Below, piece by piece: positions 2,962 through 24,650 of a stretch of 24,650 nucleotides of DNA. Position 1 is the first letter of the stretch; each line of letters opens with the position of its first letter. The DNA comes from a virus. Position numbers and translations under genes: made by a program. The stretch lies in IMG/VR virus record IMGVR_UViG_3300020202_000065. One strand, written 5' to 3'. Under the pieces are notes generated by a model. The model had not been told where the DNA came from and ran no database searches. It was given only the letters and a program-made list of their open reading frames with translations.

Positions 2962-2962
2962 T

Positions 2963-8131: not shown

Positions 8132-8173
8132 TGTGTCTGGATATGTCTAAAGTTCCGCCCGATACGCCATTCC

Positions 8174-8458: not shown

Positions 8459-8810
8459 CTTTCACCAGCTCCGTACAGAATCGTCCGGCCGTGTAGTCTC
8501 CAAATGCCAGTTCCTGATCATTGATCAATCCTTGGCTTCGAGCGAATAAACATTCAAGTGATCGGTGCGCCTCTGCAGTGCAAACCACTGCGCCGAATGG
8601 CAGTTCTTCAAACGATCGGTAGCCGGCGGCCGCCAGGCAGGATTTGAATGGCTCCTGTCTGCAAAGATCACGCAGTTCCTGCGTTTTTTTCATCGCTGCG
8701 TGGATAGCGAGAGGTCCGCGGTGCTTCATGTACCACGATCGCGTTTCCCAGCGCTTGGCCTCGATCGCTACGAGCGTCGCCCATGGTTGCCACAGGCTGA
8801 TGCATTTCAT
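8340..8810 (-). CDS. ASCH domain protein (ASC-1-like)
   Basis: Start moved to ATG 8810; ISLWQPWA.L....KRWETRSW...RGPLAIHA, LPFGAVV, FGDY..GR, KGRQGFW. Confidence 0.9.
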   Translation of the reverse strand: MKCISLWQPWATLVAIEAKRWETRSWYMKHRGPLAIHAAMKKTQELRDLCRQEPFKSCLAAAGYRSFEELPFGAVVCTAEAHRSLECLFARSQGLINDQELAFGDYTAGRFCTELVKVTRLETPVPEKGRQGFWEWPWLAKPSERDRTLSLFDNHP

Positions 8811-8812
8811 GG

Positions 8813-9013
8813 CTATTCCCCGAAGAGTCCGTATGGCGTTAAAACAAGCCGGTCCACGCCTTTTGCCCAGCAATAGCGGCGCCAGCGTTTGTCTTGGCGC
8901 ATCTGAATAAAGCGCTCGATCGCCGCATCAAACTCCGGATCCGGCGCGTCCAGCATTCCTGGCTCTGGAATGCTGGACTCTGGAACGATTCGATTCTGTT
9001 CTTCGCGCGTCAT
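8813..9013 (-). CDS. Hypothetical protein (66 aa)
   Basis: GGAGG RBS, ATGA overlap with upstream gene. Confidence 0.7.
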   Translation of the reverse strand: MTREEQNRIVPESSIPEPGMLDAPDPEFDAAIERFIQMRQDKRWRRYCWAKGVDRLVLTPYGLFGE

Positions 9014-9306
9014 TTGCCCTCCGCCCGAAAAATGAGACGCTTAGATGAATCAATGAGATTAAGGACGTGGATTTCGTGATCAGCCTGGTGCGGTTTCTTC
9101 ATGATCGTGCACCATTCCTTCAACAGGTTCAGCATATCCCGGTGCTCTTGAGGTATGCGGCATTCCGATTTTCGGCAGCGTTCATCGCCGGAATCGTCTT
9201 GGTACTGGTCACCGCAGAACTCACACGTTTCGTAATCGTGTCCGTCATCGTCAGGCTCTGATTCATGCGGATGAATCGGATTTCCAAGTCGGTATCTGGG
9301 GTTCAT
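9010..9306 (-). CDS. Hypothetical protein with CxxC...C...C
   Basis: ATGA overlaps at both ends; CEFCG...CRKSEC. Confidence 0.7.
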   Translation of the reverse strand: MNPRYRLGNPIHPHESEPDDDGHDYETCEFCGDQYQDDSGDERCRKSECRIPQEHRDMLNLLKEWCTIMKKPHQADHEIHVLNLIDSSKRLIFRAEGK

Positions 9307-9467
9307 TTCTGCACGCTCGCCTTCCGAATGGTGGAAGTGATGCGCTTTCCATTCGCCGTCTTGCTTTTTTGTGGACAGTCGCGGAAATGAACGATGATGC
9401 TTTTACACTGAAGATATTCATCGCCACGCTTGATTGGCATTCCGCAATTCAGACAGATCTTTTTCAT
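9303..9467 (-). CDS. Small Zn-finger-like protein (54 aa), not in ORF track
   Basis: MKKICLNCGMPIKRGDEYLQCKSIIVHFRDCPQK...; ATGA overlaps at both ends; CxxC...HxxxC. Confidence 0.7.
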   Translation of the reverse strand: MKKICLNCGMPIKRGDEYLQCKSIIVHFRDCPQKSKTANGKRITSTIRKASVQK

Positions 9468-10891
9468 GCGGCACCGTTTCCTTTCGGTGCATCTGATCGA
9501 TCGGCGGCCTGTTCTATGCGATGTGCATACTGCACATCAACCATGAGGCTGGCGATCTTTTGGATATCGGAGACCTTCCACGGCTTGTCTGAACTGCGCA
9601 TCTTGTGCTGAGCGAAAGCCTGTTCCTTCGTATATGTCTGAGCGTTTTTCAGATGGCAGGTGTAGCCGTTATCGTTCTTGCCCCAGAACAGCATGCAGTT
9701 ACCCACGCATTGGCGGGTGTCCTGAAGGTAGTACATCTCCTCTGCGGTGGACGGCTGCGCCTGCGCGGAGAGGGCGCGGATGTTAGAGCCGATGGACTCG
9801 GCTGCGTAACTTGCTCTGATTGGAATCCCACTTCTTTGCTCTTTTTCCCTAAAAAATTCACGTGCTTTGTCCGCCACCATCGCGCACTCCTCAATCGTTT
9901 CGTTGCGAAGTTTTGCTATCTCGTCCGCCGTGTATATAACCATTGTGCCGCCGCACTTTTCGCATTTACCGATACCTGGTTCGAGCCCATCACTGATAAA
10001 CGGGAATGAATGCTCGCACTCCTCCGCCGTCTTCGAGCTCGGGGTGTCGCGCTCATCGCCTTCAAGAATCTGGAAGTCAATACTCGCTTCGGCTTTGTTG
10101 TAAGTTTCCTGAGCGGCATCCAGTGCTTTCGACGCCTCGTAAAACTCCCGCAGTTTCCGATTTTCAGATTCGAGAGTGGCGAGGCGTTCGTCTTTACCTT
10201 CGCAGCTTTCCTTCGCCGTTAACTCCGAATGTTTCGTCTCGCTGGGCTGGGAGAGTGCTGGCTCTTTGTTGTCGAGATGCGCAAATTCCATTGCCTCGTC
10301 GCGGCTTTTGGCTTGCCGCGTCCACTGCTCTACGCTGTCAATTTTGAGCGTGGTAAACCAGGTTCCGCTCCTTGAGTAGACTGTGTATTTCACGCCTGGG
10401 TCTACGATCATGTAATAGGTGAAACTCTCTCCTTCCGTTGAGTCGGTAATCCAACGGCGCTTGCGTTCTTCCTTCAACGCTTTCATCAGGCGCTCACATT
10501 CGTTTTCAGCTTTCGTTAAATCACGCAGGTATTCTTTGTTTCGTTTATAAAGGTCAGCGTTCACGCCGCTTGTGCTCAGTTGCTCGATTTCGCGTTTTAG
10601 TGCTGCGTTCTCTTCCAGGTTCTTGACGTATAGGTCGTGTGCGACCTTGCATCGCGCCAGCTGCGCTTCAAGACTGACAATCTGGCAATTCTTGACATGT
10701 TCGCTTGTCGCTGCGGTCGAGGCGGCGTGACGTTCGTTGTAATATTCGTCGACGAGTTTTCCCGCCTTGTCCATCAGGTTGCTGGCCTTCACAACAACGG
10801 CTGTGAGTTCCGGTGATGCGCCTAGACTTTCTATGGCCTGAGTGAGGTTGTAGATGTCCCACAGGATCGGGTGTTTATTGAGCTGAGCCAT
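9464..10891 (-). CDS. Mosaic phage protein (Ead/Ea22-style: coiled coils, Zn ribbon, small fused modules)
   Basis: AGGAG RBS; coiled-coil segments, CEH...CEKCG, RNETIEECA, C-terminal YYLQD.R..VGN...FW....GYT..L..A module typical of small phage proteins. Confidence 0.7.
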   Translation of the reverse strand: MAQLNKHPILWDIYNLTQAIESLGASPELTAVVVKASNLMDKAGKLVDEYYNERHAASTAATSEHVKNCQIVSLEAQLARCKVAHDLYVKNLEENAALKREIEQLSTSGVNADLYKRNKEYLRDLTKAENECERLMKALKEERKRRWITDSTEGESFTYYMIVDPGVKYTVYSRSGTWFTTLKIDSVEQWTRQAKSRDEAMEFAHLDNKEPALSQPSETKHSELTAKESCEGKDERLATLESENRKLREFYEASKALDAAQETYNKAEASIDFQILEGDERDTPSSKTAEECEHSFPFISDGLEPGIGKCEKCGGTMVIYTADEIAKLRNETIEECAMVADKAREFFREKEQRSGIPIRASYAAESIGSNIRALSAQAQPSTAEEMYYLQDTRQCVGNCMLFWGKNDNGYTCHLKNAQTYTKEQAFAQHKMRSSDKPWKVSDIQKIASLMVDVQYAHRIEQAADRSDAPKGNGAA

Positions 10892-10900
10892 TCAAAACTC

Positions 10901-11404
10901 CTATGCTTTCAATGAAATCGTGTTGTCCAGTCGCTGGTCGCGGCCGGTGACTTCGATCACCACGCCGGCGCAGAGCCGAGATACGACACGGCTGTCCAGA
11001 ACCTCGGCCAGGCTGGCCGGCGCAAGATTTCCGGTCACGATCAGCGGCCGTTCACCTCGCGTGTTCAGAAATGTGAGCAGCGCGTCTGTTTGCGGCTGCG
11101 TTGATTCGCGGACTCCTATGTCGTCGAGACAGATAAGATTCATGTCTTTGAATGAGTTCATAAATGCACCCACAGATCCCTCTCCGCGAGCGCGCGTGAA
11201 GTCCAAAATGAACTTCGATGCGTCCCACCAGGCGGGGCCGCAGGCGCTCTCTGCCCATCGCTCAAAGATCAGCGCCATAGCACATGTCTTCCCGCAGCCG
11301 GTAGGCCCCCACACGTACCAGGGCCAGCGGTTAGATTGGTACGCCTTGTCCATCGCCGCTCTCAAACTGGCCTTCAATTTCGCCATCGTCGGGCGGACAG
11401 TCAT
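10901..11404 (-). CDS. DnaC/IstB-like AAA+ ATPase (helicase loader)
   Basis: Walker A GPTGCGKT, Walker B LICLDDIG, sensor IVTGN, RVVSRL, GRDQR; start uncertain (11404, 11386 or 11497). Confidence 0.85.
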   Translation of the reverse strand: MTVRPTMAKLKASLRAAMDKAYQSNRWPWYVWGPTGCGKTCAMALIFERWAESACGPAWWDASKFILDFTRARGEGSVGAFMNSFKDMNLICLDDIGVRESTQPQTDALLTFLNTRGERPLIVTGNLAPASLAEVLDSRVVSRLCAGVVIEVTGRDQRLDNTISLKA

Positions 11405-12269
11405 TCCCGGCGTCCGCCTCAATGGCTCTGTCCCCCAACGAAGACAATTGGCTCTTGTGGTCGTTTGGGTTGTATTTTTTACTGGGTTCTGGTCCACCGC
11501 TGCTTCTCCGTGGAGCTCTGTTCTGTGCGTTGTTTAGCCAGTTGCTGAGGAATCGCGGCATGCCTACCGCTGTCTTGCGTTGCTTCACGTTGTCGACGCA
11601 CCACTGGCGCGCGGCTCGCATCTGCGCGAGAACGTCCAGTGACGGAAAAGACTGTTGATATTCTTCGAGTTTCGATTGAGTCAGTGGCCACTCGCCTGTG
11701 CCCTGTTTCTCCCCGTCAATCGGGAAGGTCAGAACCACAGGTGAGGTGTCGATTTTCTTTTTATCTGGCGGATCTGCTGTCAGAGAGAATTCTTGAGAAT
11801 CGGGCGGAGACTCTTCCTTCTTCTTCTTAGTTAAATCCGAAGATGAAACTGAAGATGAAGGGGTTGGCAAACGGTTGGCATCACCCTTGGACTGACCCTT
11901 GGACTGACCCTTAAGGGCCGGATTACCACCCTTATGACCGGCCTCGACACACTTCTTGCGCTTCTGTTCATCCTTCACCATTCGCCGGGAGTAAATAGCG
12001 CCAGATGAATTCCGGCTTACCACCCCCTTTTCGACCAGTGAACGGACGCATGATAGAGATCGGCTGAAGTCCCCGCCGACGGCACGTGCGATTTCATCGT
12101 CTTTCCATGCCGTTCCAGCAGTCGCTAACACGCCTCGCTCTTCACACTCCCACATCAGACAGAGCATGTCGATATACACACCCTTTTCCTCGTGCGTTGC
12201 ACGACGGACGTTAGGGTCTTTCCACCAATCGCCTACGTAGAACTGAAAGGCAGGTAACTTATCGGCCAT
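11331..12269 (-). CDS. Phage replication initiator (YdaU/DUF1376-like N-terminus)
   Basis: Start moved to ATG 12269; PAFQFYVGDW...KGVYIDMLC..W, SRRMVKD, KGGNP, low-complexity linker, C-terminal W.....RKT..GM.RFL.NWL; upstream of DnaC-like gene. Confidence 0.8.
   Translation of the reverse strand: MADKLPAFQFYVGDWWKDPNVRRATHEEKGVYIDMLCLMWECEERGVLATAGTAWKDDEIARAVGGDFSRSLSCVRSLVEKGVVSRNSSGAIYSRRMVKDEQKRKKCVEAGHKGGNPALKGQSKGQSKGDANRLPTPSSSVSSSDLTKKKKEESPPDSQEFSLTADPPDKKKIDTSPVVLTFPIDGEKQGTGEWPLTQSKLEEYQQSFPSLDVLAQMRAARQWCVDNVKQRKTAVGMPRFLSNWLNNAQNRAPRRSSGGPEPSKKYNPNDHKSQLSSLGDRAIEADAGNDCPPDDGEIEGQFESGDGQGVPI
11812..11933. repeat. Iteron-like repeats, candidate phage replication origin
   Basis: ACCCTTGGACTG x2 + ACCCTT (11883-11912) and ACCCTT 11928; GGTTGGCA x2 (11862, 11873); GAAGATGAA x2 (11839, 11851); palindrome CCCTTAAGGG; pyrimidine/AT tract 11812-11836. 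Confidence 0.6.
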
Positions 12270-12534
12270 CGAAGATTGGTTCCAAGATGCCAGCGTTCGG
12301 CCAGTACAACGTTCGGATCCCGCGCTCTCCGATGAGAACTTCAACCAGATAGGATTCGTGATTGCGCGCCGGCGCGGACTTCGGGTCGCCAATCGGTTTG
12401 GTGCTATAGTTGTCGAACTTGAAATCCTTCAGATCGATAAGCTTTGTGTTCGCCGGCACCACGGCCACGATCTGGCCATAGATGGATTTGCCGTGCTGAG
12501 TCCAGCGGACCTTTGAATTCAGAAGATCAGACAT
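12259..12534 (-). CDS. Hypothetical protein (91 aa)
   Basis: ATG 12534 with GGAG upstream; V.W......G.IVAVVP...RNHESYLV...LYWP pattern of small phage proteins. Confidence 0.75.
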   Translation of the reverse strand: MSDLLNSKVRWTQHGKSIYGQIVAVVPANTKLIDLKDFKFDNYSTKPIGDPKSAPARNHESYLVEVLIGERGIRTLYWPNAGILEPIFDGR

Positions 12535-12544
12535 GGGAACTCCC

Positions 12545-14182
12545 TTAACCCACAAGCGAATCGTCGAGCTTGATCGGGTCGCCGCGGTTGATCAGTTGCA
12601 GGGTTCGAAGTTTCGACAGGTAAGTGCCGAAAGTTCCACTGTTACTTGAGAATCCAGTCATCTCAGCCAGGGACTGCTTCGATAACCCAGTCGGATGATT
12701 GACCTGAAGAGCCCGGAGTATGCGCGCGTAGCCGCTGTCATCGCCGCCAAGTTCGCGCATCCAGTACTGCAGCAGCGCGTCACCGATCGGCAGCGGATCG
12801 AAGTCACCCAGGAGAGTTAGCCCAGAAGCAGTGATAACAATCCGATCGGGCTCATACCTGATGTGTCCCAAGCGCTTCAGATTGCTCAGGTAAGTTCCAA
12901 ATGTTCCGCTGTTGACGCTGAATCCGGAGACCAGAGCCAGACGCTTCTTGTCCATTTTTTCGTACTGCGCCAGTGCCTTGAGGATCTTCTTCTCGCCGGC
13001 ATTCACGGAGGTGTCATCGGAACTGTCGTCATTGAAGACAGGATTGACCGGGGACTTAACAGGCTGCGGCTGGCGCAGCGCAGTCGCAGCAACGCTAATT
13101 TCATGCACTTTTGTTTTGATTTGCGTCACAGCAGGCGACGCTTCGATACTCGCCAAGCGAGCGATATCACTGAGCCTTTTTCTCAGCCCGTCAACGATGG
13201 ATTCCTGCCGTCGTCGTTCAGCTTCAACGGCTCTTTCGATCGCTGCTTTGTCGGTCGCCGGCGCGCGCTGCGCACGTTCCAGCTCGCGGATCTTGACCTG
13301 TAGCTCAGCAACGGTCTTGGCTTCCTGCTCAGCCTCCCGCGGCAAATCAGCGAGTTGGGCCAGCACACCCAAAACCTTCCCGCGGGGCGGCGGCGGTGCG
13401 ATCGCACGCTGGCCAGCTTTCGGGTGGGACGTTTGAACAGTGCCGATCTGAAGCATGGTAATTCTGTTTGTGATGGCAGGACCGAAGGCGAAGAACTGCC
13501 CAGCTTCGAGATTGCGAAGCATTGCCTGGTCCGTCTTCTGGGTAAATCCGAGCTCATCCGCCGCGCGCTTCATGTCGACGTCCAGAGCGCTTCGTCCAAT
13601 CAGCTTGTTATTTGCTTCGGCAGCCGCGTCTTTGTGAAGCTTGCTGATGCGCTGCGTAGCGAGGATCCCACAGAACCCGCGCTTGCGGCCGCGCGTCTGC
13701 AGGTCAATCACAGCCGAGGCGCTTTCGGCATGACCATTCTGCGGCGCAAAGATATGGGCCTCGTCGATGACGATCATGGCAGGGTGCCACAGTGATTTGT
13801 CGACATTGACCAGTGCGTCTAGGAACCGTCGCACAAAGCTGATTCGCTCGTGCTGCTTCAACTCGTAAATCCCGATGATTGCCGAGACGTTGAGTTCGAG
13901 AAGCCGGCGGGCCAGCATTGCCGCGCAGCCAGGGTGAGCAGGACAGTCAGCCGCCTTGTTCCCGGCGAGGACGTAATCGTATTTCTCACGCAGCGTGGCG
14001 AATTCGTCTTCTACGTCGATGACGATCTGCTGTACTTTGCCGTGTGTCTGCTCGAGCACGCGGCGGATACACCACGATTTGCCGGCGCCGCTATTGGCTT
14101 GAATGAGCAGACGAGTCTCGATGAGCTTGTCGATGTTCATCAACACCGGCTCATGCGTTTCGTTCTCGTGTCCGAGTATCAT
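12545..14182 (-). CDS. HerA/FtsK-superfamily ATPase (DUF87-like) with coiled coil and two C-terminal winged-helix-like repeats
   Basis: ANSGAGKS, IDVEDEF, IVIDEAH, RGRKRG, LATQR; repeats GFSVNSGTFGTYLSNLKRLGHI and GFSSNSGTFGTYLSKLRTLQLI. Confidence 0.85.
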   Translation of the reverse strand: MILGHENETHEPVLMNIDKLIETRLLIQANSGAGKSWCIRRVLEQTHGKVQQIVIDVEDEFATLREKYDYVLAGNKAADCPAHPGCAAMLARRLLELNVSAIIGIYELKQHERISFVRRFLDALVNVDKSLWHPAMIVIDEAHIFAPQNGHAESASAVIDLQTRGRKRGFCGILATQRISKLHKDAAAEANNKLIGRSALDVDMKRAADELGFTQKTDQAMLRNLEAGQFFAFGPAITNRITMLQIGTVQTSHPKAGQRAIAPPPPRGKVLGVLAQLADLPREAEQEAKTVAELQVKIRELERAQRAPATDKAAIERAVEAERRRQESIVDGLRKRLSDIARLASIEASPAVTQIKTKVHEISVAATALRQPQPVKSPVNPVFNDDSSDDTSVNAGEKKILKALAQYEKMDKKRLALVSGFSVNSGTFGTYLSNLKRLGHIRYEPDRIVITASGLTLLGDFDPLPIGDALLQYWMRELGGDDSGYARILRALQVNHPTGLSKQSLAEMTGFSSNSGTFGTYLSKLRTLQLINRGDPIKLDDSLVG

Positions 14183-14826
14183 TTCCCCTCCAATTTCTTG
14201 AATTCAATGACCCACACCCACGGATTCAGGTCCCAACCGAAGCCACGATGCAGGTTGATGCTTTCCCAGCGTGTTCTGAATTGTTCGATCGGGTGCTCGC
14301 CAGGACGTTTCGAACGCTTCGCAGCGCGAGCAACGTCCACGATTCCTTCAGCGATGCAGTCGGCGTAACTGATCTCTTGAACGCGCTCGACACGAATATT
14401 TGTGACTTCAAGCCAGATACGGCAGGCCCACTTCGGCATGAAGATTGACGGTGTTTCCTTTACGCCGTAGTCGTTTGCGCAACGGACCGAATCGCCATCC
14501 ATGGCCTCGGAGTAACTGACGAGCCGCGGACGGCCCGCATTATCTCGATGAGTAGCCTCTGCAGGAGATGAGAAGCGGGGCGGCGCAATATAAAGGTTTT
14601 CTTTCACCCACAACCGATCGCCAGGTTGACCGTAGCGACATTTCGGTTCGCAAAAATGGCAATGTCCATCCGTCAAACACTCGCAGTCCTCGCCTTTGCC
14701 TGCATGAAACGGCTGGGGCATGATCACCCGCCGCGTCTGCGTCTTGCGGCCGACTAGAATTGAGCGCACAGACTCAGCTGTGCAGATTAGACCTGTCTCT
14801 TTAACTTTTTCGGCGACAGCGCTCAT
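14179..14826 (-). CDS. ASCH/PUA-like phage protein
   Basis: GRKTQTRR, YGQPGDRLWVKE, PSIFMPKWA.RI.LEVT.IRVERVQEIS..DCIAEG, NPWVWVIEF. Confidence 0.8.
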   Translation of the reverse strand: MSAVAEKVKETGLICTAESVRSILVGRKTQTRRVIMPQPFHAGKGEDCECLTDGHCHFCEPKCRYGQPGDRLWVKENLYIAPPRFSSPAEATHRDNAGRPRLVSYSEAMDGDSVRCANDYGVKETPSIFMPKWACRIWLEVTNIRVERVQEISYADCIAEGIVDVARAAKRSKRPGEHPIEQFRTRWESINLHRGFGWDLNPWVWVIEFKKLEGK

Positions 14827-16337
14827 GCGCCCTCCTTTGCAGCGAGCAGGGTGAACAGCGAAAGGCGCTCACGCTGCATTTCCAGATAGTCTTTGTTGAG
14901 TTCGGTGCCGATGTAGTAGCGCCCGAGCTTCGCGGCGACTTCAGCGGTCGTGCCGGATCCCATGAAGATGTCGCAGACCAGCGCCGGCACGCGATCTTCA
15001 ACGCCGCAGTTACAGGTCGGAGCCCAGCCCAGCGTGGTCTTGCCGGGGAAGGGGTTATCGTGCTCTCCGCCCTCCGCGCGCGCACGCGCGGTGTTCTCCA
15101 CCATCTTGCGGCCGCCGTTCTGTTCATGGAGTTCGGCGTGCTTATACCGTCCGGTCTGTTCCCGGTGAGAGCCAGGCCCAGTGTCCCAGCCAGATGGCGT
15201 TTTCGAACTTTTGACAGTGCCAACTAGGCGCTTGTACGGGGCCTCACACTTAGCACAGCAGCCATGCGCACTCGTGCCAGCTCGGATTGCCGTCTCGGCC
15301 AGTTTTGGCGGGAACGTTGCGAAGTGAGCGTCAGGGTACGGCGCCGTCGGAATGTTCCAGACCGTCGTGAGCAATCCCGCCATCAGGTGTGCTAGGGGAT
15401 TGCGTTTCCACGAACGTTCAGCAGCCACCTGCAGGATCGATGGGCTGACCCCAAGATTCTCGAATTCAATCAGCAGATCACCCAGGAGCTGGAAGCACGC
15501 TTGTTCGTCGTACTCTATGGGCCAGACAGAGCGCTTGTTGCGTGACGAGACGATCTCATTCACCGCCGAAGCAAAACTAGCGTTCTGTTTCGTGCCTTTC
15601 TCAGAAGTGAGCGACTTTGGATTGACACCCGAGCCGCGCTGATGCGTATTACCAGTGGTCGACTCATGGATGGCCAAGGCATCGTAAAAGTACTTCTGAG
15701 ACTTCGATAACAGGAAGACGTACTCGTGCGCCTTGGTGCAGCGATCGGTCACCGATTCGGGCATGGGATTGGGCTTGGCCCAGATATTGTCCTGCCGCAG
15801 ATACCAGCCGTCTGCCTGCAGTGCGAAGGCCAGGCGCCAAGGGATACCAACCATGTCCTTCAGCTTCAGCTTTGACACGCCCCGGTGTGGATTGTCTTCT
15901 CGTGGCATACGATCACGGCGGTAAGATTTTCCTTCCTTTGAAGCATCGCGCGGTTTAGTTGTGCTGTTCAGAGTCGAAGTGCCGGTGTCTCCACCGCAGC
16001 CGCTGCCAACATAGCAATCGCCGATGTTGATCCAGCAAGTGCCGTCCTGGCGCAGGACGCGTCGGACCTCACGGAACAGCAGGACCATGTGACCGATAAA
16101 GGCATCCGGAGATGGCTCCTGCCCGAGCGGACAGTTCATCGCCGGGATGGTCACCGGAGGAAGTCCAGGCAGCGGTTCGAATGAAACCTCTGGCCATTCC
16201 GTACCGGGAACCCCGTAGTTTCGGAGTTCCCAGTACGGCGGCGAGGTCACCACACAGTGGATGCTGTTTTCAGGCCACGTCGGCAGAATCTGCATGACGT
16301 CGCCGCCAACCACTGTGTTGTGAGGGAGAGAAGACAT
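14823..16337 (-). CDS. DNA methyltransferase, N4-C/N6-A beta class
   Basis: Catalytic VTSPPY near N-terminus, W.KPNPMPES..DR, HFATFP, SAM-binding DIFMGSGTT near C-terminus; no cognate endonuclease seen. Confidence 0.92.
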   Translation of the reverse strand: MSSLPHNTVVGGDVMQILPTWPENSIHCVVTSPPYWELRNYGVPGTEWPEVSFEPLPGLPPVTIPAMNCPLGQEPSPDAFIGHMVLLFREVRRVLRQDGTCWINIGDCYVGSGCGGDTGTSTLNSTTKPRDASKEGKSYRRDRMPREDNPHRGVSKLKLKDMVGIPWRLAFALQADGWYLRQDNIWAKPNPMPESVTDRCTKAHEYVFLLSKSQKYFYDALAIHESTTGNTHQRGSGVNPKSLTSEKGTKQNASFASAVNEIVSSRNKRSVWPIEYDEQACFQLLGDLLIEFENLGVSPSILQVAAERSWKRNPLAHLMAGLLTTVWNIPTAPYPDAHFATFPPKLAETAIRAGTSAHGCCAKCEAPYKRLVGTVKSSKTPSGWDTGPGSHREQTGRYKHAELHEQNGGRKMVENTARARAEGGEHDNPFPGKTTLGWAPTCNCGVEDRVPALVCDIFMGSGTTAEVAAKLGRYYIGTELNKDYLEMQRERLSLFTLLAAKEGA

Positions 16338-16355
16338 TATCGTTCTGCGCCTCGA

Positions 16356-17747
16356 TTAGAACAGACCCGCTGTCTTCTTCTTTTTGCCTCTGCCCTCAGG
16401 CAGTGCGCCCATGGGAGTCGGCGGCGGATCCTCACACTCATCTTTGCCGGCCGCGGGAGGCGCTTGTGCCGGTTCTTCGTCCTTGGCGCCGATGTTCGAA
16501 CCTTCGGTAATCTCGATCGCAGTCGGTGAAGAGTCGTCGACGCGCTCGATCCACACCTGCATGCCGTGCTCTACGGCGTTGTCGATGACCATCTTGAGCG
16601 ACTTGTTGTCAAGCAGACTGCCGTGCCGAATGAAGGCGACTTTCATCTTCGGATTGGCCGCAGCGGCCAGGGCGATTCCGACACGGATTTGCTCGGCGGA
16701 AGAACACTGCTTCAGCGGATTTCCGTTGAAGACGACATTGCCCTCAGCGTCGATGCCCAGGCCGGCGACCGGGAACTTGACGCTTTTCAGGGCAGCCTCG
16801 CGCGCCTCTACCAGCGCGGTAATCTGCTTTTCGAAATCGGTCGATTTCTCTTCGACCTTTTTCAAATCGTCTGCAACCTGCTTGCGCTGCTGAGCCTGGC
16901 GGATCTTCGCATTAGTGGCCTCGGCATTCTTGATCTGAGTGCGAATACCCTCGATCTTGCTCGCGTAATCCACTGGCTCTGAAGCCTTCTTGCGCAGGTC
17001 TGCGAGCTGAGCAGTCAGCGAGTCGCGGTCCTGAGTGAGTTTCTTGATCTGCTGCTCAATCTGTTCCAGTGTGCGCTCGGCAGTCGCGATCTGATTCGCT
17101 CGCAGTTCGGCCTTGCGGTTTTCCTCGAGCAGCTTTGTCATCTCTTCGCTGAGCGCGGTCACAGAAACCAGTTCAGTCGGCAGTTCCGGATCCGGCGCTG
17201 GGTACGACGACAGATTCGCCTGAAGGCGCTTCACGTCGCGATTCACAAACGTGCGCTGCTCACGCAGAGCCTTCTGCTCTGCTGCGTTCTTGTCCAGGTC
17301 GAGTTCTGTAGGGCAGACCGTCAGCAGACGCTTGGCCTGTTCCTTATGATCGAGTTCAGCAAACTCCATCGGATCGAAACCGATGGTATTGATCATGCTT
17401 TCAAGCAGTTGCTGCGGGCTCTTGTAGGTCAGCCCTTCGTGATTGGTGACTTCGAGGTATGATCCAGCCTGAGTAAATTTCCTGCGGACGATCAGTTCCT
17501 GGGTCTTTAAAACGACCTGTGCCTTGTCCTTCCCGTCCCTGATCGGCTTGTCGAGCATGGCGTCGCCGCCGCGCAGCGCCATGACGATCGCATCCAGCAC
17601 TGAGCTTTTGCCTGCGCCGTTCTCGCCTTTGATGATCACCGCGCCGGCTGGATTCTTCTCATCCAACTTTATGTCGACGGCGACGATCCGTTTTACGTTC
17701 TCCGCCTGCAGCGAGATGATGTGCTGCGGCCCCATTTCCTTTGCCAT
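16356..17747 (-). CDS. Rad50/SbcC/SMC-like ABC ATPase with central coiled coil
   Basis: ENVKRI, Walker A GENGAGKS, long heptad region, signature-like CSSAEQ, Walker B/D-loop-like VAFIRHGSLLD. Confidence 0.85.
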   Translation of the reverse strand: MAKEMGPQHIISLQAENVKRIVAVDIKLDEKNPAGAVIIKGENGAGKSSVLDAIVMALRGGDAMLDKPIRDGKDKAQVVLKTQELIVRRKFTQAGSYLEVTNHEGLTYKSPQQLLESMINTIGFDPMEFAELDHKEQAKRLLTVCPTELDLDKNAAEQKALREQRTFVNRDVKRLQANLSSYPAPDPELPTELVSVTALSEEMTKLLEENRKAELRANQIATAERTLEQIEQQIKKLTQDRDSLTAQLADLRKKASEPVDYASKIEGIRTQIKNAEATNAKIRQAQQRKQVADDLKKVEEKSTDFEKQITALVEAREAALKSVKFPVAGLGIDAEGNVVFNGNPLKQCSSAEQIRVGIALAAAANPKMKVAFIRHGSLLDNKSLKMVIDNAVEHGMQVWIERVDDSSPTAIEITEGSNIGAKDEEPAQAPPAAGKDECEDPPPTPMGALPEGRGKKKKTAGLF

Positions 17748-18012
17748 TGTCCTGTCCCTTTTCGCAGAGTTCCACGGCGGCAGCGAAGAAGAGAGGCATC
17801 TCCCCGATATCCTCGCCGCGCTTAGCCATTTCCTTTTCCAGTTTCATGAATGCTTCAATCGGACCGCAGTCGTTATTGCGGCTGATCGTGCTGATGATTT
17901 CGATGAACGGAGCGACGTTCGACTCGTAGTTGTCGCGCATCAAGGACTTAATTGTGTCGCGCACATTTATGAGCCGTTCAGAGGTTGATCTGATCGCCGC
18001 TATGTTCATCAT
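17659..18012 (-). CDS. Hypothetical protein
   Basis: ATG 18012 (GGAG upstream, ATGA overlap); tail overlaps next gene by 89 nt. Confidence 0.65.
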   Translation of the reverse strand: MMNIAAIRSTSERLINVRDTIKSLMRDNYESNVAPFIEIISTISRNNDCGPIEAFMKLEKEMAKRGEDIGEMPLFFAAAVELCEKGQDNGKGNGAAAHHLAAGGERKTDRRRRHKVG

Positions 18013-18428
18013 TTTTTCTCCGCCAGTTCCTTGAAGTACGTTGCGGCCTGGGCCGTGGTCTCGGGTGTCAGTTGACTGCGGAGACGCTCGGGTAGAGGGA
18101 CCTCGTTCTTGAAGAACCAGTCCAGCATGCGGCAAGCTTCAATCACGGTCTTCGCTTTGGCATTCCGGTAGTCGTTCAGTTCCTTGCGGTTGTCTGCGGC
18201 CCAGTCGTAGGCGATCAGTTGCGCCGCGCGCTCGTTATCCACGTTCGTGTCGGATGCGCGCTGGTTCACCTTTTCTTCGAACTGCTTGGCCCATTTTCGT
18301 TCCGTCTCAGGGTCGCTCTTCCGTTCGATATAGAGCGCGACAGCGTCACGAAGCTGCTGCAGCGACTCTGCGCCCTCGGTCAACGTCGACAGCATGATCA
18401 CCAGAAGTACGATCGCTCTGTTTTGCAC
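18009..18428 (-). CDS. Putative secreted helical protein
   Basis: GTG start, AAGGA upstream; signal-peptide-like MQNRAIVLLVIMLSTLTEGA. Confidence 0.7.
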   Translation of the reverse strand: MQNRAIVLLVIMLSTLTEGAESLQQLRDAVALYIERKSDPETERKWAKQFEEKVNQRASDTNVDNERAAQLIAYDWAADNRKELNDYRNAKAKTVIEACRMLDWFFKNEVPLPERLRSQLTPETTAQAATYFKELAEKK

Positions 18429-18774
18429 AGATGAGTTCCTTTCCTTCTTTGAAGGTTCCCGCTTTGAACTGGTCCGGGAATTCGCGTTTGAGAATGTGAA
18501 ACAGCTTCACCGGCTCGAGCCGATTGAAATCCTTGAGGACGAGATTGATCCAGCGTGGAGAGAGGTCTTTCACCGAAATGGATTCCATTCGGTAGAAGAG
18601 GTAGTAGCCGAAGTAATTCTTCTCGGCCGTGTCGAAGCTATTGAGCAGTTCCCATAGCTCGATTTCTTCCGTTGTGGCTGGGCGCCGGCCGTCCTTTCGC
18701 ACAACCTGGCCGTCCGTGATTCGGAACAGCATGCGCGTAGGTTCAACCGGTCTGTTGTTTGCGCTCGATCCCAT
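18346..18774 (-). CDS. Hypothetical protein
   Basis: GGAG upstream of ATG; tail overlaps next gene by 83 nt. Confidence 0.7.
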   Translation of the reverse strand: MGSSANNRPVEPTRMLFRITDGQVVRKDGRRPATTEEIELWELLNSFDTAEKNYFGYYLFYRMESISVKDLSPRWINLVLKDFNRLEPVKLFHILKREFPDQFKAGTFKEGKELICAKQSDRTSGDHAVDVDRGRRVAAAAS

Positions 18775-18808
18775 GTCCGTCTCTCCGAAAGCAGTTATTG
18801 AAAAACAG

Positions 18809-19075
18809 CTACCCGATCTTTTGAGCCTTCATGTATTCCTGCAGGTTCTGCCTGTGCGCCGGGATGAGATAGGCTTTGTGCTTGTTCAGTGCCTTCTCGA
18901 CCTGAAACCCGGCGATGCTCTTGTCTGTTTCCTTCAACTTGTCGGCTGCGGCCTGGATGCGCTGTGCCGCTGCTTCAAGGTCGAGCCAACCCTGCTCAAC
19001 TTCCTTGAACAGCGGCGTCAGATCCTGGCCGTTGTCCTGCATCACTTGCTCCTGCGTCTGTGCTTCCTGGTCCAT
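18809..19075 (-). CDS. Hypothetical helical protein (88 aa)
   Basis: Start moved to ATG 19075 with AGGAG upstream. Confidence 0.7.
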   Translation of the reverse strand: MDQEAQTQEQVMQDNGQDLTPLFKEVEQGWLDLEAAAQRIQAAADKLKETDKSIAGFQVEKALNKHKAYLIPAHRQNLQEYMKAQKIG

Positions 19076-19304
19076 TTGCCTCTCCTGTGGGAACGGGCAG
19101 CGGCTTGGTAATGAGCTGCACCGTTCGGTGCTCGTGCGTTCCGTTGTCAGCAACAACGGCCGTCTGAACGTCAAGGTCGATGTAGTCGAGTCCGTTCGTC
19201 ACACGGATCTTCGAGAGGGGAATGGCGAGGTGAACCTTGCGACCAGCCTTGATGTCGTCGAACTCAGCCTGGGACGCGCCTATGGTGACAATCTGTTCGC
19301 TCAT
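18996..19304 (-). CDS. Hypothetical protein
   Basis: ATG 19304 with GGAG upstream; tail overlaps next gene by 80 nt. Confidence 0.65.
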   Translation of the reverse strand: MSEQIVTIGASQAEFDDIKAGRKVHLAIPLSKIRVTNGLDYIDLDVQTAVVADNGTHEHRTVQLITKPLPVPTGEANGPGSTDAGASDAGQRPGSDAAVQGS

Positions 19305-19364
19305 AAATCTCTCCAAAATCCGGGTGAAACTCGCTCAAACTGCTGCAAATCAGGCCGAAACCGC

Positions 19365-19520
19365 TCAGCCTCCCAACGAATCGTTCTCGAACAGCACAGC
19401 CAGCTCGGGATCAATCTCAGGCTGCTCTGCCTGCTGAACAGCTGGCTCACGGCGCTCTGCGATTCCCTCTTCCGGCGCCGGCGCGAAGTGAAAAAGCTTC
19501 TGTTCTTCCGGGTCTGTCAT
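19365..19520 (-). CDS. Small very acidic protein (51 aa), not in ORF track
   Basis: GGAGG RBS; MTDPEEQKLFHFAPAPEEGIAERREPAVQQAEQPEIDPELAVLFENDSLGG. Confidence 0.6.
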   Translation of the reverse strand: MTDPEEQKLFHFAPAPEEGIAERREPAVQQAEQPEIDPELAVLFENDSLGG

Positions 19521-19545
19521 TGCCCCTCCGTTCAAAACCTGCGCG

Positions 19546-20199
19546 CTACTGCGCAGGCTCGTCTTTCGGCAGTCCGTCCATAGAAATCTGTCCGGCCGCG
19601 GTCGAGACCACAGTCGGCAACGCTTCGCGCGCTCGCGGCGGATCCACGGTGACCGACTCGAACTTCTTTTCTTTGAAAACGAACGCGTCAGTGATCGGAA
19701 TGAACTGGTCTGCGGCCTTGATCATCTCGCCGGCTGTTGAACGCTCGAAGCTGACCAGTTCAACTCGGCAGCCCAGGCTCTTCAGCGATTCGACCAGCGG
19801 CGTAAAGGCGCTGTCGCCCGAGACCAGAACGATGGTGTCAACGCGCAGGGCCAGAGCCATGGCATCGATCGTCAATTCGACCGCGGCATTGCTGCGCTGA
19901 ACCTCAGGCGCACCGTCCGTGCCGATGCGAACCTTCAGTTCCTTGACCTTGGTCTCAAAGCCAACACGGCGCAGCGCTTCGTGGAAACCGGACTGGTTTA
20001 CATCCGGCTTCTGCACAATATAGGCAATGGCCCGGATCAGATGCCGGGATCCGACTATTTCGCGCAGAAGCTTGAAATAGTCGACCTTCCCCTGATGCCC
20101 GAGCTTCGCCGAGTAGTACATGTTCATCACGTCCACCAGCACAGCGATGCGCTGCGGAAACGTGCGTGCGACCGATACGGCTTGTGCTTCGTCAGACAT
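19546..20199 (-). CDS. NYN domain protein (LabA/DUF88, PIN-like fold)
   Basis: IAVLVDVMNMY, LIRAIAY, VELTIDAM, VLVSGDSAFTPLV..L...G.RVE, ADQFI. Confidence 0.9.
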   Translation of the reverse strand: MSDEAQAVSVARTFPQRIAVLVDVMNMYYSAKLGHQGKVDYFKLLREIVGSRHLIRAIAYIVQKPDVNQSGFHEALRRVGFETKVKELKVRIGTDGAPEVQRSNAAVELTIDAMALALRVDTIVLVSGDSAFTPLVESLKSLGCRVELVSFERSTAGEMIKAADQFIPITDAFVFKEKKFESVTVDPPRAREALPTVVSTAAGQISMDGLPKDEPAQ

Positions 20200-20229
20200 A
20201 GATAGAACCCTTTCAATCGTGTGGGCATC

Positions 20230-20922
20230 TCAGCCCACGTAATCCGCTGCGATCATCAGGCAGGCACGCACCTTCCCGAGATTCAGCGCTTTGTCGTCTG
20301 CTGAGCGCACACGAGTCTCCATGTCGATGCAGATGGTCTGATCGCCCACGACGTCCTCGATGCGCTTGAGCTGGTCTTTCAGGTTTTCAGGCCCCAGACC
20401 GCCGGCGTAGGTACAGAGCACGCCTGGAACGGGCTTCGGCCAGGCTGCCGGGAGAATTCCGGCGCCGTGCGAAAGGTCGAAGATTGGAACAGCGTTGACA
20501 CCCAGGCGCAGCGCTTCCTGGAACACGGCATTGTTCACGTCATCGATCTGGAAGATGATCTGCTGTGTGAGCCGCTTCATCTTCACGTAGAACTCGGGGG
20601 AAAACTCGTGCGTCTGCCCGTGGAAGTTCAGCTGCACCCGCGGGAAGCGGAAGGCATGGCGCCAGAAGTTCTCCGGCATGCCGCCGCGGGCAATGGCGCG
20701 AACCCATTGGCCACAGACATGCGCAGAAAGGTTCAGCCCCTTTCCTTCGCGCGCGAGTTCGCCCTGCCACGCGTCCGAGGGGAAGCGCGGGATCCCGTCG
20801 CGCGCATTGGCGGACATCAGGATTCCCCATTCGACAAACGGGAAGTCCTTAGAGATCTCGTTGAGTTCCTTGACCGAGACCGAATCGTCGGCGCCGGTGA
20901 TTGTGCAGAAGTGAAGCTTCAT
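20230..20922 (-). CDS. TrpF (PRA isomerase)-like TIM-barrel phage protein
   Basis: Start moved to ATG 20922; TITGAD, VEWGIL, SAHVCG, RVQLN, FDLSHGAG, YAGGLGPENL, IDMETRVRS. Confidence 0.7.
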   Translation of the reverse strand: MKLHFCTITGADDSVSVKELNEISKDFPFVEWGILMSANARDGIPRFPSDAWQGELAREGKGLNLSAHVCGQWVRAIARGGMPENFWRHAFRFPRVQLNFHGQTHEFSPEFYVKMKRLTQQIIFQIDDVNNAVFQEALRLGVNAVPIFDLSHGAGILPAAWPKPVPGVLCTYAGGLGPENLKDQLKRIEDVVGDQTICIDMETRVRSADDKALNLGKVRACLMIAADYVG

Positions 20923-20926
20923 GGTC

Positions 20927-21391
20927 TCAAACCTCTGTCCAGTTGCCGGCGCCGAATTTGATGTCCAGATAGCGCACCCAATGCAGCCATCCGGATGGCG
21001 TGTGAAAGCCCCACTCGCGACGCTTCGGGCCGGTAAACACAAGCGTCCATGTGGTTGTGTTGGGTTCGAGAATGAGCCGATGCGCGTCTTCGGCGCGATG
21101 GCGGATGATGTCGCCCTGCTCCCACCAGCATTCGAGGTTTGCGGTCGTGCCGTCTTCGAAAACGACACGATTCACCTCGGTGTAGCCGCCTTTGAGAATG
21201 ATCGAGGTGAAGTCCCAGGGATGGTCATGCAGGTCACGGTCACCGTCGCTGCGCAGGATCTGATGCAGATACACGTTGCCCCAGCGACACTCGAAAATGT
21301 AAAAGCGGCGCAGGTACGGCTGGCCGGCCTCATCGCAGATGGTCTTTGAGAACTTCAATCGAGAGAGCAGCTTGCGGAAAATTTGAAACAT
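20927..21391 (-). CDS. Cupin-fold phage protein
   Basis: YLH.I.RSD.DRDLHDHPW.F.S.IL.GGY.E...HR...WTLVFTGP..REWGF; HxH...E...H metal ligands. Confidence 0.8.
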   Translation of the reverse strand: MFQIFRKLLSRLKFSKTICDEAGQPYLRRFYIFECRWGNVYLHQILRSDGDRDLHDHPWDFTSIILKGGYTEVNRVVFEDGTTANLECWWEQGDIIRHRAEDAHRLILEPNTTTWTLVFTGPKRREWGFHTPSGWLHWVRYLDIKFGAGNWTEV

Positions 21392-21465
21392 GACACTTCT
21401 CCATCACGGCGGTGGACGCCGGATCCAGTTGGGTCAGATCATTCAGTGCGCAGAGGGTTACAGCG

Positions 21466-21687
21466 TTAGGACACGGCGACGGACACTTCGCCCGTCGTAC
21501 GGCTTTGCTTCACACGCAGCAGCGACTGCATGTAAGGCGAGAGTTCAACCTGCATGTCGCGATGCCGCTCATTGAAGCCAGTGGCGCGGTCACTCAACTC
21601 GCCGACGTAGCGATCGAGCGCCGGCGGCGGATTGTCCGTTCCCTGCTTCGTTAAGTGTTCCTTCACGATGTCGAATGTTGAAAGCAC
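21466..21687 (-). CDS. Hypothetical protein (73 aa)
   Basis: GGAGG RBS before GTG. Confidence 0.65.
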   Translation of the reverse strand: MLSTFDIVKEHLTKQGTDNPPPALDRYVGELSDRATGFNERHRDMQVELSPYMQSLLRVKQSRTTGEVSVAVS

Positions 21688-21713: not shown

Positions 21714-22433
21714 TTAAGAAGCTTCAAACAAAATTTTTGGAGCGTTGGGATGCTCTCTCCAACAGTACGAGCGCTCTGCCTCGGCCATGTCGATGCACAC
21801 CCAGCCGCGGCTTGGAATCCACAGCCAGTCGATCGACCAGGCGCCGTAAAAGACACGGCCGGCCTTTTCCGAAAGCGCGGTCAGTTCAGCGACCTCATCT
21901 GGGCGCTCAACGTTGATCCACGCCAAATGTTTGTCCCAGTTGGGATCCGACGGCCGCTGAATCGACTCGGGTGGCCAGTACGGATGGTGGCCTACGACCT
22001 TCCCGTCCTTGATCCAGTAGCGCCGTTCCTTGCAGATCGGTGTGTCATTGAAGGCGCGGAACGCTGGCTCGATCGGCAGGAACTCACGCACGACCCAGAT
22101 ATTCGATGGCAGGCCCAGCAGATCACAGCACTCGCAGTACTCGGAAATTTCGCGGACGTTGCGATCGATCTGCGACTCTGAAGCCAGGAAGCAGGTTCGG
22201 CTCCAACTGTGCTTATTGCTGGTGTGGCCCGATCGGAGGAAAGCCGGGTATCCGCCAACTTCCTTGGCGGCCTTGGCGATCGCATTGAGCAGCTTTTGCG
22301 GAATGGGCTGGTCTGAGAACACGTACCCAGACACATGATCGCCGGCGTCGATGATCACCGTCTTGGGAACCGGTACCCCCGTCTTCTGAAGCAGGGGAAA
22401 CCAGTAAGAGATGCAGCAGCGAGGGTCACGCAT
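21714..22433 (-). CDS. ATP-grasp fold protein (R2K/Cdc123-like)
   Basis: VPVPKT, PAFLRS...S.KH.W, WVVREFL, ERRYWI.DG, WSIDW......W..ID; 8-nt overlap with integrase stop. Confidence 0.65.
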   Translation of the reverse strand: MRDPRCCISYWFPLLQKTGVPVPKTVIIDAGDHVSGYVFSDQPIPQKLLNAIAKAAKEVGGYPAFLRSGHTSNKHSWSRTCFLASESQIDRNVREISEYCECCDLLGLPSNIWVVREFLPIEPAFRAFNDTPICKERRYWIKDGKVVGHHPYWPPESIQRPSDPNWDKHLAWINVERPDEVAELTALSEKAGRVFYGAWSIDWLWIPSRGWVCIDMAEAERSYCWREHPNAPKILFEAS

Positions 22434-24018
22434 TGGACGCGTCCCTCCGTGCCACCGCGGCGGCGAGCTCGCGCAGTTCAGCGACGAGTTCCGCCTCGCG
22501 AGAATTTTGTCCCGATCCCTCCCCAGTCATTGGATTCCCAAGGGGGAGAACAGAGAACCCGGCAGAGTCCGGTTTGGGATCGGGGACGTTCGGGCGCGGC
22601 GCGTCGACACCGCGCCGTCCCGTTGCGGACCGCATTGCGGCCGCATTCTTCATTTGTCGATTTGTGATCGGATTGTGATCAGAACTGTTGCACGGGTGCT
22701 GCACTTCATTGTTTGCACAGTTTTGTGCAACACCCTGACACTGACAGGATTTAGAGTGAGTTGTGTCGACTTCTGTCTGAGAAGTGACTGGGTTCAGAAA
22801 TGGTCGGGGCGGCGGGATTTGAACCCGCGACCTCTGCGAAGTCGGGGTCATGTCTAACTCTCTGGGGCTCTGGGACCTACGTTGAAGAAAACTCGCGATC
22901 TTTTTCGGGGGCCGCATTGTGGCCGCATTCCCCGTCAAAGAGGTTCGCACCATGGATCCCACGCTCTCGGCCAGATTCTTCAGCCGTGCGTCTCGGGCCT
23001 TGGCGTACGTGTTCATCGTCAGCTTCGGATCGGAGTGGCGGGCAAGGGCCTGGGCCTCTTTCACCGACGCACCGCTCTCAACCACAAACGTCGTATAGGC
23101 AACGCGGCACGCGTGGAAGTCAACCTTCCCATCGGGATGGTCCGTTTCCCGATGCTTGATGCCGCAGCGATCGAGGTCTTTCTTGAGGTAGCGGGCGGGG
23201 TGGGCAGGAACCCAGAGCAGGCGTTCACCCGGTTCCTTTTCTTTCACTGACTTCGCCAGATCTTCAACCAGATGCTGGGGCAGGGGCTGGAAATCGTCCT
23301 GCCGGTTCTTCGTCCAGCTCGACCGAAGAACAAGTCCGCCGCGGTCGACGTCGAGATCCGAAACGATCAGCGATCGGAGTTCATTGGCGCGCAGTCCTGA
23401 GCAGAACGCTACCTCGTAACAGAGACGGCGGTGGGGAGCGCAGGTGTTCAGCAGCAACTGTATCTCCCCCTTTGTCAATGCCCGGCGCTTGATCTTCGGC
23501 GACGTGTCGAAGCGGCCTAGTTGCTTCAGTGGATCGGCTTCGAGATAATTTCTCTTTACGAGAAAATCGCAAAAAGCAGAAATTCCTTCGGAATAATTTG
23601 CGAGGGTCTTCCCAGCCGCGCCCCCATCCGAAAGTTTTTTCAGCGTCGCTTCCACTCGAGATAGACACCCGTTCAACTCGGCAACCTTCTCAACACTCAG
23701 TTCCGAGATCCAAAATTCCAGGTGAGCCTTTCTCATCCGGAAATGCGTCTTGCCCCAAGGTTTTCCGTTCCGGCCGCCGTTCAGGGCACCCCACGCCAGA
23801 TACTGCTTCACCACTTCTCTGCAGCTGGCACCGCTTTCGACGCCAGCCGCCAATCCAAGCCGCACCGGCAAGAATTTTTTCTCTAGCGCAATCGCCAGAT
23901 TTCGAGTCTCTGTCTTATTGTCGCTTCCGGTGAAGTGTCTCTGAATTCCAGCACCATCGAGATAATAACCACGATACTTACCGTTCGGTTCCTTCCTGTT
24001 CCGTACCCCTGCCATCAT
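22426..24018 (-). CDS. int: Tyrosine integrase with long C-terminal extension spanning attP
   Basis: GLRANEL (R), TKN (K), FHACR (HxxR), ARHS...TMNTY (H, Y); about 190 further codons after the catalytic Tyr; start 24018 or 24015. Confidence 0.93.
   Translation of the reverse strand: MMAGVRNRKEPNGKYRGYYLDGAGIQRHFTGSDNKTETRNLAIALEKKFLPVRLGLAAGVESGASCREVVKQYLAWGALNGGRNGKPWGKTHFRMRKAHLEFWISELSVEKVAELNGCLSRVEATLKKLSDGGAAGKTLANYSEGISAFCDFLVKRNYLEADPLKQLGRFDTSPKIKRRALTKGEIQLLLNTCAPHRRLCYEVAFCSGLRANELRSLIVSDLDVDRGGLVLRSSWTKNRQDDFQPLPQHLVEDLAKSVKEKEPGERLLWVPAHPARYLKKDLDRCGIKHRETDHPDGKVDFHACRVAYTTFVVESGASVKEAQALARHSDPKLTMNTYAKARDARLKNLAESVGSMVRTSLTGNAATMRPPKKIASFLQRRSQSPRELDMTPTSQRSRVQIPPPRPFLNPVTSQTEVDTTHSKSCQCQGVAQNCANNEVQHPCNSSDHNPITNRQMKNAAAMRSATGRRGVDAPRPNVPDPKPDSAGFSVLPLGNPMTGEGSGQNSREAELVAELRELAAAVARRDASNA
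22628..22930. repeat. Arm-type direct repeats flanking the att core
   Basis: CCGCATTGCGGCCGCATTC (22630-22648) and CCGCATTGTGGCCGCATTC (22912-22930), 18/19 identical, each a tandem of G(G/A)CCGCATT with 11-bp period. Confidence 0.8.
22801..22838 (-). other. att core: 3' portion of a tRNA-Pro gene
   Basis: Minus strand CGCAG AGGTC GCGGG TTCAAAT CCCGC CGCCCCG A CCA = variable loop, T arm, acceptor 3' strand, G72/A73, CCA; no 5' half upstream. Confidence 0.88.
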
Positions 24019-24039: not shown

Positions 24040-24486
24040 TCATTTCACCATGAAGAAAAAGAACGCCTTGACGTACGCCTGTGTTTTCGAGTCGAGATTC
24101 ATGTACTCGGCCTTCGACATCTGCTTCATCTCGCCACTCGCAATCTTCCCAGCCATGATCCGGACCTGAATCTTTTCAATGTCCGAGAGCACGGTCCACG
24201 CCGGATGATTGATTAAGTGCTCGTTCAACTTCTCCGCGCGCGCGTCAATTTCTGCCTGGCGTTCAGCCTCGAGTTCCTTCTTCGACTTCTTCTTCTCGGG
24301 CGGCGGCGCAACCTTCACTTTCTTCCTCGGCTTCTCAGCAGGCTCAGCCGCGGCAACACCCTTATCCTCTCCCTTATCCGCACCCTTAACCGTCGCGTCT
24401 TCGGGCGGCGCCGGCGGTTTGACCGGCTTTTCCTCCCCGTAAACCCCGCCAACGGCGAGCGCGCACAGCAGAATCACCCATCGCAT
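24040..24486 (-). CDS. Putative secreted protein with Lys/Pro-rich linker
   Basis: Start moved to ATG 24486; signal-like MRWVILLCALAVGGVYG-EE. Confidence 0.75.
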   Translation of the reverse strand: MRWVILLCALAVGGVYGEEKPVKPPAPPEDATVKGADKGEDKGVAAAEPAEKPRKKVKVAPPPEKKKSKKELEAERQAEIDARAEKLNEHLINHPAWTVLSDIEKIQVRIMAGKIASGEMKQMSKAEYMNLDSKTQAYVKAFFFFMVK

Positions 24487-24650
24487 ACTTTGCCCCCTTT
24501 CCGATAAACCTTTGATCCTGCCTGCTCTAATCGATTCTCCATGAACTTCAATATGAACCCGGCCGTCCACGTAGGTTTTCCCATCAATTTCACCGGCGGC
24601 GGCAACTCCCCACGCCTCACCGCCCGCTTCACACTGATCTCAGACTTCTC
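24474..24650 (-). CDS. AlpA/excisionase-like HTH protein, C-terminal part (starts beyond right edge)
   Basis: Own translation: EKSEISVKRAVRRGELPPPVKLMGKPTWTAGFILKFMENRLEQAGSKVYRKGGKVCDG*; G.LP.P.KL....W wing motif; two genes upstream of integrase. Confidence 0.7.
   Translation of the reverse strand, partial: EKSEISVKRAVRRGELPPPVKLMGKPTWTAGFILKFMENRLEQAGSKVYRKGGKVCDG

Follow-up and report, generated by a model that had tools for sequence, protein, structure and literature searches.

In phage lambda the attachment site lies outside int. A different layout was described in phage Mx8, in which attP lies within int and integration creates a new 3' end of the gene without inactivating the enzyme, according to the available parts of PMC6070905 and PMC4383910; the first of these also states, in the part available, that the swap alters integrase specificity. 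The archaeal "suicidal" integrases of SSV, pTN3 and pT26-2 likewise have their att site inside the integrase gene and target a tRNA gene (PMC8371274, sections available), and in mycobacteriophage BPs, where attP is located in the repressor gene, integration rewrites a C-terminus (PMC3694055, sections available). The precedents of attP within int to which an earlier note on this DNA had appealed, Mx8 and archaeal SSV, are both borne out by these sources. More generally, an integrase accompanied by arm repeats and a core taken from the 3' end of a tDNA is given as a standard integration signature in the available part of PMC4383910.

The window analyzed here, a 24,650-nt stretch of DNA from a soil phage (IMG/VR record IMGVR_UViG_3300020202_000065), carries an Mx8-type attP-in-int module and is a new, well-documented example of it. 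As in Mx8, attP falls in the int coding sequence, the proteins are of similar length (529 aa here, 533 aa in Mx8) and the core is reached near codon 395–405 (near codon 420 in Mx8). The Mx8 record holds, in one direction, an excisionase, int with attP, a phrog_874 gene, a replication initiator and a DnaC-like loader, and the order is the same here; the "split operon" is therefore not new, as the Mx8 layout already has it. On the other hand, Mx8 also encodes a primary repressor (Imm), its core runs antisense to the tRNA whereas the core of the window is in tRNA sense, and the host phylum differs. The Mx8 target is reportedly tRNA-Asp instead of tRNA-Pro, and its integration is said to replace 112 residues by 13, compared with 124 by one in the window. 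The two integrases are barely alike (30% over 56 aa in the best segment), Mx8 is absent among the 15 phage records listed out of 17, and the comparison does not suggest a clear sequence relationship between the two proteins.

The archaeal integrases differ in that the split separates off their C-terminal catalytic part and leaves the gene inactive, whereas all six catalytic residues are kept here in a 406-aa product. In BPs the repressor loses a short degradation tag, whereas attP lies here in int; no known degron was found and no repressor was found at attP in a scan that covered ORFs other than those on the opposite strand over the core. With the lambda-type three-domain integrases the locus shares the fold, and direct repeats lie on both sides of its core.

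The integrase gene and its embedded attP core

The window encodes a tyrosine integrase (PF00589) with the R-K-H-R-H-Y set and a lambda-like fold. The int ORF runs from 24030 to 22426 on the minus strand (534 open codons; translation from the ATG at 24015 gives 529 aa), PF00589 was matched at residues 184–347 of this ORF, and the catalytic residues R209, K236, H301, R304, H327 and Y337 were all found. The structure model resembles full-length lambda Int (E 7e-9) and other tyrosine recombinases, and the N-terminus was modelled by AlphaFold as a three-strand-plus-helix domain. The features of the gene are the following:

22426..24015, minus strand: tyrosine integrase gene as it stands in the attP (excised) state, encoding 529 aa
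23005..23007, minus strand: codon of the catalytic Tyr337; the core follows every catalytic residue, and integration leaves them all in place
22909..22930, minus strand: tandem 11-nt repeat pair in the P arm, likely Int arm-type sites
22801..22835, minus strand: att core of 35 nt, identical to the 3' end of the host tRNA-Pro(GGG) including CCA and read in the int frame
22689..22740, minus strand: imperfect inverted repeat in the P' arm (z -2.4, without a U tract), a protein-binding site or an RNA hairpin
22627..22648, minus strand: second tandem 11-nt repeat pair, in the P' arm, probably also arm-type sites
22429..22800, minus strand: post-core Int tail, residues 406–529 (124 aa), lost on integration with one Ile in its place
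22432..22506, minus strand: predicted C-terminal helix, residues 504–528, the sole part of the tail modelled with confidence by AlphaFold

The earlier note held that int stays open for about 190 codons past the catalytic tyrosine, crosses a tRNA-Pro 3' fragment as RSRVQIPPPRP, continues for some 125 codons and ends overlapping the next start. The count gives 192 residues beyond Y337 and 124 beyond the core, the frame across the tRNA fragment encodes that same peptide, and 8 nt (ATGCGTGA) are common to the int stop and the start of the following gene. Its description of the attP as complete is also upheld, as 22-nt tandem repeats flank the core on both sides, at 74 nt on one and 153 nt on the other, and the whole window contains no further copy of this repeat at up to 5 mismatches. 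The core itself had to be shortened from the proposed 38 nt (22801–22838), since identity with the host tRNA spans the 35 nt of 22801–22835; the 38-nt version had no match in species genomes, which is consistent with a 35-nt core and an uncultured host. The scans of viral contigs revealed no near-identical copy of the phage and one distant locus with a different neighbourhood. A tmRNA target, suggested by an Rfam match, was excluded by a junction contig that carries the full tRNA-Pro(GGG). The inverted repeat at 22689–22740 could be an operator or a Xis site.

Junction contigs and the shortened integrase

The 90% cluster of Int comprises four members. One of them (P0123, 406 aa) is identical through residue 405 and then ends with Ile and a stop codon, and another (75 aa) is an orphan C-terminal ORF that equals Int residues 455–529; for both, the longest contig listed is 133,175 nt. 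This bears on gene callers, as an orphan tail is annotated as a small hypothetical gene. In the assembly of run X1, a 35-nt contig covering 22801–22835 sits at the centre of a four-arm cross; two of the arms are phage, and of the remaining two one reads as a tRNA-Pro anticodon arm while the other opens with Ile and stop codons (contig depths of ~30 for the phage and 13–15 for the host arms, which are not a copy-number measure). Runs X2 and X3 each gave one contig across an intact attP; the window itself possibly originates from X1 and X2. A metagenome scan with the 35-nt core returned 41 stretches, 36 of them with a full tRNA-Pro, and in just two of the 41 did similarity to the window extend beyond the core. 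The first, L119, is attL and consists of host DNA, the full tRNA-Pro(GGG), the core and 64 phage bases; the second, L107, is attR and consists of 91 phage bases, the core and host DNA, its translation ending in Pro-Ile-stop. The phage sides of both are identical to the window.

The tRNA-Pro proposed as target and the attL and attR junctions sought have thus both been located, and the predicted swap of the C-terminus to host sequence is what the translated attR contains. Integration exchanges 124 Int residues for one Ile (529 to 406 aa), the new C-terminus is encoded by host DNA, and the catalytic domain stays whole in the 406-aa prophage form. This evidence consists of contigs without raw reads that may derive from one sample, and it could be objected that the junctions are assembly chimeras over the 35-nt repeat and that the phage does not integrate there, the more so as L107 and L119 share an assembly prefix, the remaining records could share their sample, and the four-arm graph fits attP plus attB as well as attL plus attR. 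However, the 91 and 64 phage-only bases past the core in L107 and L119 correspond to reciprocal products, a separately filed assembly yields the same 406-aa and 75-aa products, and the combination of integrase, arm repeats and tDNA 3' core is the standard signature mentioned above (PMC4383910, part available); a chimeric origin is judged highly improbable. With genuine integration, attP, attL, attR and both protein forms stand side by side for an uncultured phage.

The host is likely a member of the Planctomycetota, a likely assignment and not a firmer one because it is based on the relatives of one gene beside attL, whose best named relatives belong to that phylum (76%, 67% and 65%). Behind attR, the host DNA carries a terminator-like hairpin (z -3.8), recognized by inspection and folding, which would terminate the int transcript; its stem runs into the U tract and it was missed by a consensus terminator scan. 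Another hairpin followed by a T run is found just 5' of the host tRNA-Pro (L119:2905–2935) and could limit upstream transcription into the tRNA. In an unrelated 42.7-kb phage contig (L007/L008), both ends carry this tRNA-Pro core and int is directed away from it; this is the ordinary layout and serves well as a control.

Read-through in the integrase clade and the attP-only tail

Among the best 120 of 225 relatives, most integrase tails end in peptides of tRNA or tmRNA ends, in various frames, as judged by eye. At the DNA level, the best 80 of 247 confirmed stretches represent 79 loci, 78 of which allowed the catalytic tyrosine to be located. In 43 of the 78 the tyrosine is followed, at a median of 163 nt, by an intact tRNA or tmRNA gene in convergent orientation, and int stays open as far as this tDNA in 39 of these 43 against 9.1 expected, although the 43 include near-copies and do not amount to 43 independent events. 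At the same loci the other sense frames are open in 8 and 2, and the antisense frames in 16.7 on average. A stop before the core in relatives, an objection that the earlier note had raised against itself, is therefore the exception. The other 35 loci comprise 26 with a T-arm motif, past which int reads in 24, and nine with none. Read-through of the att core by int is a rule of this clade, to which the window conforms, so that the Mx8 layout becomes the rule in a large and distant group of integrases with interchangeable C-terminal modules. Int enters the tDNA in each of the three frames (5, 20 and 14 loci), and the junction peptide is not conserved because this entry frame varies. The orientation of the core changes 13 times on a tree of 66 rows, at least eight of these changes being forced by well-supported branches. 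A 40%-identical relative (L120:1687–3165) enters the same tRNA-Pro(GGG) core antisense; one target is thus used in both orientations within the clade. The literature searched, with few subscription journals, contained no work on this Planctomycetota-type clade.

Seven loci with a second upstream copy of a repeat were excised in silico. Three clean excisions with tDNA-type cores (L013, L023 and L082) joined Int in frame to a conserved helical module with a WxxLP motif, and in L023 the post-core residues number 1 in the integrated form and 131 in the excised form, near the 1 and 124 of the window. The remaining four were not counted, as L030 gave 6 aa, L056 had a 15-nt core and an unrelated 71 aa, and the repeats of L081 and L052 are of arm type instead of cores. 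The module, about 35 aa long, ends the attP form of many members, and in integrated elements it is left as an orphan at their far end; it was seen in L013, L023, L082, L014, L033, L039, L060 and L021. It has no Pfam family, its only atlas matches are unnamed Planctomycetota clusters, and outside its 13 seeds it matched one cluster mate and three further loci. Additionally, two related phage integrases with 78% identity share a 571-aa frame that continues across both core and linker.

The tail of the window Int is less easily classified. Residues 380–503 are predicted by AlphaFold to be disordered, ahead of the terminal helix. In simulated sequences the frame stays open over the 174 codons after the conserved domain in 3.7% of cases and over the 124 post-core codons in 9.9%; the openness of the tail by itself is modestly beyond chance, and the clade is the stronger evidence. 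A search of 1.84 billion representatives returned no homologue of the tail beyond repetitive matches, the atlas searches gave no usable match to it, and a profile built from 13 seed tails did not detect the WxxLP module in the window with significance. A homology of the terminal helix to that module, plausible by eye, failed this profile test, and a similarity to the tail helix of Mx8 was not significant (E 5.9).

Strain differences were considered for the 40 listed out of 50, on which the figures for the tail rest. Those listed alter six tail codons and create no stop; both of the two in the terminal helix are synonymous, and four of the six altered codons change the residue, all within one linker cluster. 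Among the differences listed for the genes neighbouring int, 15 of 17 and 15 of 15 are synonymous. Runs X3 and X4, which are other soil runs, contain over 20239–22731 related phage strains that are ~95% identical, with near-int differences almost all synonymous. The case that this particular tail works as a protein is a modest one.

We consider it moderately probable that the attP-only tail tunes the activity or stability of Int, the cut in the operon being a secondary lock. According to this explanation, integration of this temperate phage into tRNA-Pro(GGG) would turn the 529-aa Int into a 406-aa form with all its catalytic residues, and the lost tail, which in the free phage only may act as a long flexible linker carrying one helix to the enzyme, would likely tune Int so that integration is favoured over excision. 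The operon cut, together with the host tRNA terminator behind int, could then provide a second lock on the replication genes, and would probably not be the primary lysis/lysogeny decision. It is likely that the shortened Int and the separation of the replication genes from int help to keep the prophage in place. The explanation is strengthened by the exact match of the junctions, the read-through in the clade, the WxxLP excisions, the 571-aa frame, the AlphaFold helix and the Mx8 precedent, and it is weakened by a tail that has neither homologue nor WxxLP motif, by the 9.9% chance rate, by the changes in the linker and by the variable entry frame. It bears on how integrases set their direction and, since the recombination sites are known, a comparison of the long and short integrase with synthetic sites is feasible.

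Alternatively, the tail might be useless to the enzyme, the open frame serving to carry ribosomes over the 370-nt P' arm to the next start codon (translational coupling or a shield against premature termination) or simply riding along as a passenger. The overlap of the int stop with the next start by 8 nt would suit this alternative, although the downstream gene has a Shine-Dalgarno-like site of its own. The disorder predicted for residues 380–503 and tails that are wholly different between phages would suit it as well, as would the tail of the sister phage L025, whose last part is an in-frame fusion to an ordinary phage gene family that has a ribosome-binding site of its own; yet a conserved WxxLP module ends the small elements of the clade, and the terminal helix of the window is modelled with confidence, its two listed strain differences being synonymous. 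We regard a tail without use to the enzyme as rather unlikely and retain the tuning of Int as the preferred reading.

The early block, the sister phage and a proposed control of lysogeny

The genes on either side of int are as follows:

24474..24650, minus strand: excisionase-like ORF whose 5' end lies beyond the window, with 48% identity across 46 aa to the gene that precedes int in L025
24040..24486, minus strand: small ORF whose product has a hydrophobic N-terminus; it separates the xis-like gene from int, and L025 has a small ORF at the same place
21714..22433, minus strand: first downstream gene, an ATP-grasp protein (R2K clade), whose start shares 8 nt with the int stop and which has its own Shine-Dalgarno-like site
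3..21687, minus strand: co-oriented early block with PHROG and Pfam families, moved to the attL end on integration

The ORF at 24474..24650, which we take to be Xis from its position and motif, has no Pfam or PHROG match. From this gene down to position 3 the long ORFs are all on the minus strand, with gaps of 260–470 nt between long ORFs of the block, and the products of 3..21687 include a phrog_1499 ATPase, a DNA methyltransferase, a replisome organizer, a DnaC-like loader, a RuvA-like protein and an exonuclease. Virion genes are absent from the window, and its phage status follows from the PHROG families and from the sister genome. Besides the RuvA-like gene and the R2K ATP-grasp gene, the early block encodes two family-2 glycosyltransferases and a NYN-domain protein (together at 5831–6277, 735–2545, 19546–20199 and 21714–22433).

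That sister genome, L025, stands closest to the window on a quick tree (SH-aLRT 99). It is a circular 91,340-nt contig with a terminal repeat that carries terminase, tape measure and tail fibre genes, and its order is xis-like gene, small ORF, int with the core, phrog_1499 ATPase, initiator and primase. The 326 nt upstream of its xis contain a cluster of five sigma70-like sites where 2.6 would be expected, whereas the stretch from the core to the ATPase gene has none, with 1.9 expected; gene order and promoter sites support one early unit. In the window, likewise, no sigma70-like site follows the core (0.4 expected). The same scan found none upstream of the host tRNA either, and so it is insensitive in this host.

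The earlier note proposed that integration cuts the downstream genes off from the xis-int transcript and places them behind the host tRNA. The physical separation is observed, the early block standing behind the host tRNA in L119, apart from xis and int. The placement behind a host tRNA does not hold more widely: the core of L025 is antisense to a tmRNA, opposite in orientation to the core of the window, and drive from a host tRNA promoter is not a conserved feature because core orientation flips across the clade.

A further proposal, that recombination itself is the lysis/lysogeny switch, with xis, int, attP and the replication genes on one transcript whose only promoter is severed by integration, would find in the circular 91.3-kb L025 the same gene order, with sigma70-like sites clustered upstream of xis and none after the core in either L025 or the window, and would be helped by the host hairpin that lands behind int. 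If it held, it would mean control of lysogeny without a repressor at attP. No repressor family was matched among the L025 ORFs scanned (19, 58 and 84 ORFs, part of the ORF set), a negative that weighs little because even the xis-like gene has no Pfam match, and Mx8, with the same layout, has its primary repressor Imm. The promoter scan is the insensitive one described above, and internal promoters might sit in the 260–470-nt gaps of the block. Besides the flips of the core, the phage side of attL offers a hairpin without a U tract and one weak terminator-like site (22570–22555), so that the block would stand downstream of a terminator-less tRNA with that weak site in between, which would favour expression rather than silencing. 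The literature searched, with few subscription journals, contained no case of an att-split early operon acting as a switch. We find it unlikely that recombination is the switch. Equally doubtful is the broader notion that, in Planctomycetota phages of ~90 kb, integration alone stops lytic growth and no classical repressor decision is needed; in such a repressor-free scheme the only early promoter would be cut off from the replication genes, a host tRNA terminator would be placed onto int and a swappable C-terminal module would be stripped from Int. The tuning of Int by its tail, with the operon cut as second lock, remains the preferred explanation.

In L025 (4506–4787) and in P0016 the last part of the Int tail belongs to a phage gene family (phrog_18209/17352) that is joined in frame and has a ribosome-binding site of its own. 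The attP form of L025 thus fuses Int to the first downstream gene, and the fusion is retained in a second phage at 78% identity. A second integrase-like gene is present on the L025 contig (L132:10740–11669). This contig was binned in an Actinomycetota MAG, yet its Int groups with Planctomycetota-type relatives.
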